From the NCBI RefSeq assembly GCF_022701215.1, contig NZ_CP089976.1, forward strand, positions 1,680,001-1,712,000: a DNA stretch of 32,000 nt, read 5' to 3'. Positions 6,125 to 6,925 of this stretch are shown here, one piece after another. The notes under the pieces are model-generated. The model saw only the letters and a program-made list of their open reading frames with translations, ran no database searches and had not been told where the DNA came from. Source of the stretch: Moraxella nasovis. GTDB lineage: Bacteria; Pseudomonadota; Gammaproteobacteria; Pseudomonadales; Moraxellaceae. Each line of letters begins with the position of its first letter. Position 1 is the first letter of the stretch. The position numbers and the translations under genes are program-made.

Positions 6125-6925
6125 ATGAGTAATATATTTTATTGTTTTGAATGTGATTATGCAAACCGCACGAAAGAAAAACCATTCTTAAAAGATATAT
6201 TGAATAATTTTACAAAAGATGAAATTGTGGGTTTTAACTTATATATTAACAATAACCCTTATAATAAACAATTTCATTTGGGTATATTTTTTGATAATGA
6301 CCAAGTAAGAGATAGATTTGATATTTGGTTGAAACAAAATCATCCTGATAGAATAATTAAATCTAATATGAAATTTCTTGATTTAGTTTTTCATGCCAAT
6401 GTTTGCGGTATTTGTGATGAAAATGGTATTGATTTGGCTATTACAAGCCATTCTAATCATATGTTTATTTTTCCAGAAAAAGATTTTCTAGAAAATCATC
6501 ACCCACAATTCGCATTTGTAAACAGAAATCAACCAAGAATTTTTTTAAGTCATTCGTCTTTGGATAAAGAAAGTGTTGTTGAGCCAATGTTTAGATATTT
6601 GCAAAGTCGTGAAATTCACGTATGGCTTGATAAATATGAAATTGATTATGGTGATAATATTTATTTCAAAATCAATGAAGGTATTAAAAATTCAGAATTT
6701 GCAATATTTGTAATTACTGAAAATTTTTTAAATAGCAAATGGGCAAATGAAGAATTGTCTTCATTTGTAAACTTAATATTTAATGATAAATGTCTTGTAA
6801 TTTTAAATATATCTGATAAATCAAATATTCCACCCATGATAATGGCTAGAAAATTCATGGAGTGGAATAATGGAGATTGCCTACTTGAAATTGCAAATGT
6901 TTTAAAAAGAAAACTTAACTTATAA
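6125..6925 (+). CDS. TIR-domain protein: C-terminal TIR (about aa 137-266, nt 6533-6925) fused to an unrecognised N-terminal domain with CFEC and CGIC motifs
   Basis: [78 protein letters not shown]. This shows the canonical TIR betaA (IFLSHS), W-D-x-x-E-I-x-x-G-D, and the SxWxxEL catalytic-Glu motif (E210, nt 6752-6754). The gene is very AT-rich. Confidence 0.85.

Follow-up and report, generated by a model that had tools for sequence, protein, structure and literature searches.

The carA–carB region of Moraxella nasovis

The window, by which we mean the whole 32,000-nucleotide stretch of Moraxella nasovis DNA analysed here, carries on its + strand a carA gene (3257–4462) and a carB gene (6937–10164), both called as ORFs, with three further genes packed between them at gaps of 11–27 nucleotides. 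The first of these, at 4490–5428 (+), encodes a Mrr-type type IV restriction endonuclease with Mrr_N and Mrr_cat domains, as recognized by Pfam and PADLOC. The second, at 5442–6113 (+), was assigned by profile searches to a large independent family of Fic/Doc-like proteins, and in it a glutamine replaces the catalytic histidine (QIFWDGNKR). The third, at 6125–6925 (+), is the gene with which we are concerned here. It has an ATG start with an AGGA sequence ~9 nucleotides upstream, encodes 266 amino acids followed by a stop codon, and its product is 100% identical to the NCBI protein annotated as toll/interleukin-1 receptor domain-containing protein of Moraxella nasovis. The start of carB lies 11 nucleotides past the stop codon of this gene, an adjacency that recurs in relatives, and carA marks the upstream boundary of the island, as judged by synteny with another Moraxella locus (L098).

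A hairpin scan of the + strand revealed terminator-like hairpins upstream of carA (3183–3211) and just downstream of carB (10182–10215), with a further hairpin past the block at 10554–10576. Between the first of these and the one after carB we found no strong hairpin, defined as one with at least 10 stem pairs. Because the hairpins bracket the block and none of the strong kind lies inside it, a single transcript is suggested, and carA-mrr-fic-TIR-carB looks like one transcription unit.

The protein encoded at 6125–6925 consists of an N-terminal domain, residues 1–130 (6125–6514), delimited by an AlphaFold2 (AF2) model, alignments and negative searches, and a C-terminal TIR domain of the TIR_2 and AbTir/TcpB type, residues 137–266 (6533–6922), delimited by Pfam, a profile search of the PDB and Foldseek.

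The TIR domain and its catalytic residues

An earlier note, made from the sequence alone, had assigned the C-terminal part of the protein to the TIR family, and this assignment is borne out by three kinds of search. The Pfam profile TIR_2 (PF13676), for which the cut-off is 28 bits, scores 64 bits over residues 139–236 (E 2.4e-17). When a profile of 25 full-length homologues was compared with the PDB, the nearest solved structures by sequence were the NADases AbTir (7.9e-18), BtTir, TcpB/BtpA and PdTIR. The AF2 model of the full-length protein (pLDDT 83.5, pTM 0.82), searched with Foldseek, confirmed the flavodoxin-like TIR fold, with matches to TcpB, PdTIR and AbTir at a probability of 1.00 and target-normalised TM scores of 0.70–0.78. 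The motifs quoted in that note are also found where it placed them: IFLSHS at residues 139–144, a 12-residue motif at 166–177 and SKWANEEL, which contains Glu210, at 204–211.

The alignment to AbTir (7uwg/8g83) is ungapped over 90 residues, such that the Moraxella numbering is that of AbTir plus 2, and it pairs S145, G176, W206 and E210 with AbTir S143, G174, W204 and E208. All four residues are invariant in our close-family alignment, which contains 25 homologues at 39–68% identity. The claim that the catalytic glutamate is intact therefore holds, since Glu210 aligns with AbTir Glu208 and is a glutamate in 25/25 homologues; its position corresponds to that of the catalytic glutamate on helix αC (AbTir E208, SARM1 E642). 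The codons of the WxxxE motif, W206 to E210, lie at 6740–6754 (+) by the same ungapped alignment. Mutagenesis and cryo-EM of AbTir demonstrated that the E208A mutant is inactive and G174A inactive or nearly so, and that W204 is required for ADPR cyclisation (10.1101/2022.05.07.491051). From residue conservation, it is well supported that the Moraxella domain would be an active TIR NADase, probably one that is competent for cyclisation. Its top matches in the defence libraries are single-gene or effector TIRs, namely PDC-S66 (4.8e-24), retron-TIR (5.8e-21) and SAVED-TIR (4e-10).

An unclassified N-terminal domain

The first ~135 residues had been called unrecognizable, and they remained so in all our searches of Pfam, NCBIfam, PHROGs, PADLOC and PDB sequences and with Foldseek. 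The N-domain gave no match in Pfam, NCBIfam, PHROGs or PADLOC at E values up to 1, and nothing significant in the PDB profile search (best E 0.15). The PDB structures that Foldseek returned were generic dimeric ferredoxin-like, ACT and PII proteins (lowest E 0.048, TM under 0.4), and those from BFVD were weak matches to CRESS-virus Rep proteins (lowest E 0.015). We also weighed whether the ECDY motif in β1 might be Cas2-like or HUH-like, and rejected this on finding no significant matches and no conserved HUH histidines.

Modelled alone with the family alignment, the N-domain reached a mean pLDDT of 87.6 and a pTM of 0.79. In this AF2 model it runs β1(4–11)-α1(15–28)-β2(34–41)-β3(49–56)-α2(59–72), followed by α(84–90)-β4(92–95)-α(99–105)-α(119–125), so that the domain is confidently predicted to contain a ferredoxin-like β-α-β-β-α core with extra helices. 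The high pTM of the full-length model suggests, in addition, a defined packing between the N-domain and the TIR domain. Invariant residues are spread along the N-domain (Y6, Y12, R15, E18, F21, K23, F29, N42, N43, Y46, F50, F65, W68, L69, P74, N92, D103 and F114). The conserved signature comprises Y-x-F-E-C-D-Y-x-x-R-x-x-E-x-x-F-x-K on β1 and α1 and V-N-N-N-P-Y in the β2-β3 hairpin, as well as W68, L69, N92 and D103. The invariant polar cluster could serve as a pocket for a ligand or as a contact through which the protein inhibits itself.

The N-domain family is rare. When 1.84 billion representative proteins were searched exhaustively with a profile, only 80 clusters were retrieved, 44 of them at E below 1e-10. 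Each full-length member that we inspected consists of the N-domain followed by a C-terminal TIR domain in ~265–293 amino acids, except that two members carry an extra N-terminal extension, which takes them to ~350 amino acids; the other matches are fragments, and no other fusion of the N-domain was found among the full-length members retrieved. Because the domain is rare and always fused to a TIR domain in full-length members, it is, on the sequences retrieved, a TIR-dedicated module. Searches of phage and plasmid collections gave matches at the level of the TIR domain only, and no full-length family member.

The N-domain also contains the two CxxC motifs that the earlier note had reported at residues 7–10 and 94–97, and both are indeed there: C7-F-E-C10 at 6143–6154 (+) and C94-G-I-C97 at 6404–6415 (+). 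The idea that they might form a four-Cys zinc site did not, however, survive comparison with the homologues. Cys7, Cys94 and Cys97 vary freely among the 25 homologues, and all four cysteines occur only in the three closest sequences (P0001–P0003), to which the CGIC motif is likewise confined rather than being family-wide. Cys10 hardly varies within the close family, and in the wider family it gives way to Leu, Gly, Ser or other residues (for example FSLEYG, FKGDYA and FDLDYG). Furthermore, C7 and C10 both lie within β1 (residues 4–11) in both AF2 models, and not in a turn or knuckle. Residues i and i+3 of a strand point to opposite faces, and since C7 and C10 are three residues apart inside β1, their side chains would be expected to lie on opposite faces of it. 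On the conservation of the cysteines and their position in the strand we rejected a Cys4 zinc ribbon or knuckle, and a structural Cys4 site is not a feature of the N-domain as aligned and modelled here.

Genomic contexts of family members

In all of the nearest clade, which comprises Moraxella and Neisseriaceae, the stop codon of the TIR gene lies 11–24 nucleotides before the start of carB. The hosts of this clade span two classes, Moraxella being a gammaproteobacterium and the Neisseriaceae betaproteobacteria. What precedes the TIR gene varies: in Neisseria sp. oral taxon 020 (L001) it follows a VapBC pair, and in a Neisseriaceae metagenome lineage (L005, L008) it is preceded by a DUF559 gene or by unrelated ORFs. 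In Pseudomonas (L004, L012) the gene is cargo of a P2-like prophage, and elsewhere family members have as immediate neighbours HipA/HNH (L011), GmrSD (L018), HEPN_Swt1 (L022) or DarT (L019), SoFic in two loci (L015, L024) and a nucleotide cyclase at another. A gene of the Fic-like family, for its part, stands alone between carA and carB in Lonepinella. Taken together, these contexts show that the carA–carB spacer is a hotspot for defence genes common to three families of bacteria. All three host families are naturally transformable, and it is a reasonable hypothesis that the carA and carB flanks serve as recombination arms. Literature on carA and carB in Neisseria yielded nothing usable on the spacer.

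The variable neighbours bear directly on the suggestion, made in the earlier note, that the two adjacent proteins are functional partners of the TIR protein. This would be a three-gene Mrr-Fic-TIR system, in which the restriction-like and Fic-like proteins serve the TIR protein as partners, either for sensing or as effectors. Other Moraxella (L093, L098, L099) share the order carA-Mrr-Fic-TIR-carB, which is conserved in at least three lineages, and because synonymous divergence between these lineages is saturated the block must be old. This persistence, the 11–27 nucleotide gaps and the lack of a strong terminator (at least 10 stem pairs) inside the block would all fit such a system, as would the type IV enzyme GmrSD directly upstream of the family member in L018 and the SoFic genes beside members in L015 and L024. 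However, TIR homologues in Neisseria, in Pseudomonas prophages and elsewhere occur without Mrr or Fic, and only related Moraxella keep the trio together. For the Fic-like family we obtained more than 650 matches at 55–83% identity, from Moraxella to Bacillaceae, and the family is found without a TIR gene, for instance beside an HTH gene in Lysinibacillus, while the Mrr protein matches the standard stand-alone type IV model over its full length, with no extra domain. Within Moraxella, moreover, the TIR gene diverges far faster than mrr and fic, and so gives no sign of co-evolution with them. We consider a three-gene system improbable, and our preferred view is that the island houses the Mrr, Fic and TIR genes as three defence or toxin modules that are independent of one another.

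The distribution of the family also speaks to whether the protein might be directed at an animal host. By this account it would be a Tcp-like factor, as are TcpB/BtpA and TirS, with animal TLR signalling or the NAD+ pool as its target. The closest solved TIR domains are those of TcpB/BtpA, PdTIR and AbTir, and both carriers of the closest alleles, Moraxella nasovis and Neisseria sp. oral taxon 020, are commensals of mucosae, with more distant members in Actinobacillus and Haemophilus. Nevertheless, the N-terminus is hydrophilic (a stretch of 19 residues), with no signal peptide and no linked secretion system, and the family extends to Pseudomonas prophages and to the environmental taxa Curvibacter, Chitinophaga, Acidithiobacillus and Vibrio. 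Its neighbours are defence or toxin-antitoxin genes, and the turnover of its alleles, described below, fits phage pressure. A host-directed role therefore appears very unlikely.

Several more distant members lie next to Thoeris-like genes. In Actinobacillus porcinus and a Haemophilus MAG (L023, L024) the order is ThsB_TIR, a 676-residue TIR and SLOG (LD_cluster2) protein, ThsB_TIR and then the family member. In a Lachnospiraceae locus (L020) ThsA_Macro and ThsB_TIR precede the family member, and in a near-identical cassette shared by a Campylobacterota genome and Curvibacter (L009, L014) it follows ThsB_TIR and a 160-residue helical protein. Three independent Thoeris-like adjacencies are too frequent for chance. 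We asked of these loci whether a type III Thoeris assignment would apply, and rejected it, as none of their proteins reaches the NCBIfam cut-offs, those of L023 and the family members falling far short. The earlier note had named a standard ThsB architecture accompanied by a ThsA as a finding that would speak against its reading. Such an arrangement occurs in L020, L023 and L024, and not beside the closest homologues or in the 32-kb window, in which we detected no ThsA-like gene.

The repeated Thoeris adjacency means that a ThsB-like signalling role stays a serious rival to a self-contained effector. Once infection is sensed, the TIR domain would then synthesize a cyclic ADPR isomer or an ADPR conjugate, and this product would turn on another protein as effector. 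In Moraxella the gene for such an effector would lie elsewhere in the genome, or its loss would have left the sensor orphaned. In all three locus types the family member is found directly downstream of canonical ThsB genes, and multi-TIR Thoeris systems with a SLOG effector have been described in the literature. Trp206 occupies the position linked to ADPR cyclisation, and the PADLOC ThsB1 model PDLC00417 matches the TIR part at 1.3e-14. On the other hand, no effector is encoded within the 32-kb window or beside the closest relatives, where carB comes directly next, and the protein falls below the cut-off for Pfam ThsB_TIR and scores 37.5 bits against 220 for NCBIfam ThcB4. Every Thoeris-adjacent locus already has a canonical ThsB, and the adjacent effectors carry different receptors, SLOG or Macro, which normally read different signals, an awkward situation for a single family. 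On balance we regard signal generation as a tentative possibility, the foremost of the alternatives to a self-contained sensor and effector.

Allele turnover and selection

At 25.5% GC the TIR gene has the lowest GC content in the window, as had been noted before (mrr 35.3%, fic 37.4%, other genes 38–50%), and across its hosts the TIR gene has 25–30% GC where the adjoining carB has 45–59%. Within the explanation that we favour, its probable reading is that of horizontally acquired cargo in the carA–carB spacer, AT-rich compared to the carB of its host.

Between two Moraxella species the N-domain shows a dN of 0.47 and an omega of 0.39, and the TIR domain a dN of 0.21 and an omega of 0.10; the dN values for mrr, fic and carB in the same pair are 0.215, 0.154 and 0.138. 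Family-wide, the TIR domain is the better conserved of the two in 85% of sequence pairs, and the faster evolution of the N-domain fits a role as a sensor. In two close Neisseria lineages carB is 96% identical, with a dS of 0.19, whereas the TIR alleles are only 55% identical and their dS is saturated. This difference indicates that alleles have been replaced at a fixed site and did not diverge in place. We also considered co-transfer of the TIR gene with the 5’ end of carB, and discarded it, since the first 300 nucleotides of carB are ~80% identical between all compared taxa and give no specific recombination signal.

The same rates argue against the view that the gene is decaying, a non-functional cargo left as an inert remnant in the carAB operon. 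The allele of a sister Moraxella (P0009; L093, L098) has lost conserved N-domain residues (C10L, D11S, N44S and Q128S), and the copies in L015 and L025 are frameshifted. In the window, by contrast, the ORF is intact and retains all 46 family-invariant residues, the omega values of 0.10 and 0.39 indicate purifying selection on the TIR domain and the N-domain alike, and the AF2 model is confident. Decay of the Moraxella nasovis gene is accordingly hard to credit.

A model for the TIR protein

The reading that we prefer, to which we give a probability of about one in two, is that the protein works by itself, in the manner of SpbK, as both sensor and effector of a defence against phages. It builds on the TIR identity, on catalytic residues that are conserved, on a two-domain architecture that stays fixed, the variable neighbours, the defence-island and prophage setting and the fast evolution of the N-domain. 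The analogy is with work in which SpbK's N-terminal domain was shown to dock on the dodecameric phage portal, whereupon the TIR domains cluster into active two-stranded assemblies (PMC12847820). From this precedent, the N-domain would by analogy gate TIR assembly on an infection cue.

We propose that the C-terminal TIR domain would be an NAD+-cleaving enzyme acting through E210, with an active site, including Glu210, Trp206 and the BB-loop Gly176, that would be built only by head-to-tail stacking of TIR domains. The ferredoxin-like N-domain would hold the protein inactive and sense an infection cue, probably a multimeric phage protein, and binding of this cue would cluster the TIR domains and thereby switch on NAD+ cleavage. 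The expected outcome would be depletion of NAD+ and abortive infection, and a cyclic ADPR isomer would probably be among the products. The gene is probably co-transcribed with carAB, and its alleles, above all their N-domains, would turn over fast. In keeping with a depleting role, Yirmiya et al. set stand-alone TIRs aside as likely NAD+-depleting effectors.

Three observations count against this self-contained reading. Three independent sets of distant members adjoin complete Thoeris-like loci, the invariant Trp206 marks cyclase-type TIRs, signal producers among them, and the N-domain contains an invariant polar block (Y12, R15, E18, K23, N42-N43 and Y46), which one would sooner expect in a pocket for a ligand or at an interface within the molecule than on a protein-recognition surface that evolves fast. 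A bolder version would make the N-domain a new kind of infection sensor whose polar cluster binds a conserved ligand or gates the TIR domain. The protein would then be a portable module, an NADase when alone and also an extra sensor for both SLOG- and Macro-type Thoeris effectors, and the embedding of the gene in carAB would couple its expression to the demand for pyrimidine and arginine during infection. We think this version doubtful, and more so than signalling to a separate effector.

The gene belongs to a rare family of fast-evolving, probably anti-phage immune genes, which several mucosal bacteria carry immediately upstream of carB. TIR immunity in plants and animals either descends from bacterial TIR proteins or parallels them, and infection sensing is understood for very few of them. 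The family offers a compact 266-residue protein with a confidently modelled yet unclassified candidate sensor domain, a natural allelic series at one chromosomal site in commensals of human and animal airways, and members that occur in nature both on their own and next to Thoeris systems of two types. It thus provides a tractable case in which to ask what makes a TIR protein a depleting effector or a signal producer, and how sensor domains diversify.

Comparison with known systems

TIR defence proteins, including single-gene ones, are already known, and the protein described here is hence not a new type of system. What is new at the level of sequence is its N-domain, which is absent from all the libraries we searched; PADLOC and NCBIfam cover only the TIR part of the family. 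We regard the gene product as a TIR protein that probably cleaves NAD in defence against phages, and whose N-terminal domain had not been described before.

The protein resembles AbTir, BtTir, TcpB (BtpA) and PdTIR in its WxxxE motif, its BB-loop glycine and its overall size. AbTir and the Tcp proteins have a coiled-coil N-terminal region. In contrast, the Moraxella N-domain is predicted to be an α/β domain with four β-strands, and we found no N-terminal sequence similarity between them. PDC-S66, the single-gene TIR candidate that is its best defence model in PADLOC (4.8e-24), likewise has its TIR domain from ~150 of ~280 residues. Membership of the same family was nonetheless rejected, because only positions 149–238 of 282 in the model align, both for the Moraxella protein and for eight diverse family members, and the N-domains are unrelated at the sequence level. 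With Thoeris ThsB of types I, II and III the protein shares the character of a TIR protein thought to sense infection, and its distant relatives lie beside ThsB- and ThsA-type genes, but it scores only 15.5 bits against a cut-off of 21.2 for PF08937 (ThsB_TIR).

SpbK, a TIR system of abortive infection encoded as YddK on ICEBs1 of Bacillus subtilis, differs in its host phylum. The PADLOC spbK model covers residues 130–206 only (E 5.9e-4), and we detected no homology outside the TIR domain, including to the portal-binding N-terminal domain of SpbK. Like the Moraxella protein, however, SpbK is a single polypeptide, carried on mobile DNA, in which a non-TIR N-domain precedes a C-terminal TIR NADase. 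It is activated by TIR clustering through its N-domain (PMC12847820), and we therefore take it as the closest functional model for the family.

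The carA-carB spacer and its cargo

The carA-carB spacer (window 4463-6936) was compared with its counterparts at loci from other Moraxella (L093, L098), Neisseria sp. oral taxon 020 (L001) and a Neisseriaceae metagenome lineage (L005, L008), and at loci L095 and L100/L101. We find that this spacer is a cargo hotspot in mucosal bacteria of three families: it holds Mrr-Fic-TIR in Moraxella, the TIR gene together with varied other genes in Neisseriaceae, and a Fic-like gene alone in Lonepinella (Pasteurellaceae). Because the strong terminator-like hairpins of the window, defined as those with 10 or more stem pairs, enclose only the entire carA...carB block, the cargo is probably transcribed together with carAB.

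The Fic/Doc-like gene of the spacer (window 5442-6113, + strand) encodes one of a large family of ~220-residue proteins. The family is highly conserved, with more than 650 matches at 55-83% identity that range from Moraxella as far as Bacillaceae and Lactobacillaceae. All members inspected have Gln where the Fic motif has its catalytic His (Q-I/L-F-W-D-G-N-K-R-T-A). The window protein also matches phrog_11900 (function unknown) at 1e-32, and in Lysinibacillus the gene is paired with an HTH gene. The window protein may be a Doc-like toxin of altered chemistry, or it may be a pseudo-enzyme.

The TIR allele of the sister Moraxella species (L093, 1913-2719; L098, 5695-6501) has lost several otherwise conserved residues of the N-domain (C10L, D11S, N44S, and Q128S), and its TIR domain is still 68% identical to that of the window protein. 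These losses may reflect re-specialisation of the sensor or early decay.

Elsewhere in the window, an LptD-like ORF (13625-16324, - strand) carries near its N-terminus a long (Thr-Asp)n dipeptide repeat (TDTDTD...) of ~20 units, which could be slippage-prone or phase-variable. A second low-GC stretch (23500-25000, 33-35% GC) covers the 5' end of a YadA-like adhesin gene (22668-23801, - strand) and a ~1-kb gap before petC, in which the ORF listing contains no ORF of at least 110 residues.

Distant family members and Thoeris-like loci

In a Campylobacterota genome (L009, 4695-6810) and a Curvibacter genome (L014, 4799-6792), a member of the TIR protein's family sits in a cassette behind genes for a ThsB_TIR protein and a 160-residue all-helical protein, the latter without a family match. 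Compared by eye, the two loci carry near-identical copies of these first two genes, which indicates recent transfer between phyla.

In Actinobacillus porcinus (L023) and a Haemophilus MAG (L024), two ThsB_TIR genes and one member of the TIR protein's family flank a gene (L023, 3320-5350, + strand; L024, 3315-5369, + strand) for a 676-residue TIR-SLOG protein, whose unassigned N-terminal region is followed by TIR and SLOG (LD_cluster2) domains. The system does not reach the NCBIfam cut-offs for type III Thoeris; it appears to be Thoeris-like, with TIR in place of SIR2 as the effector domain.
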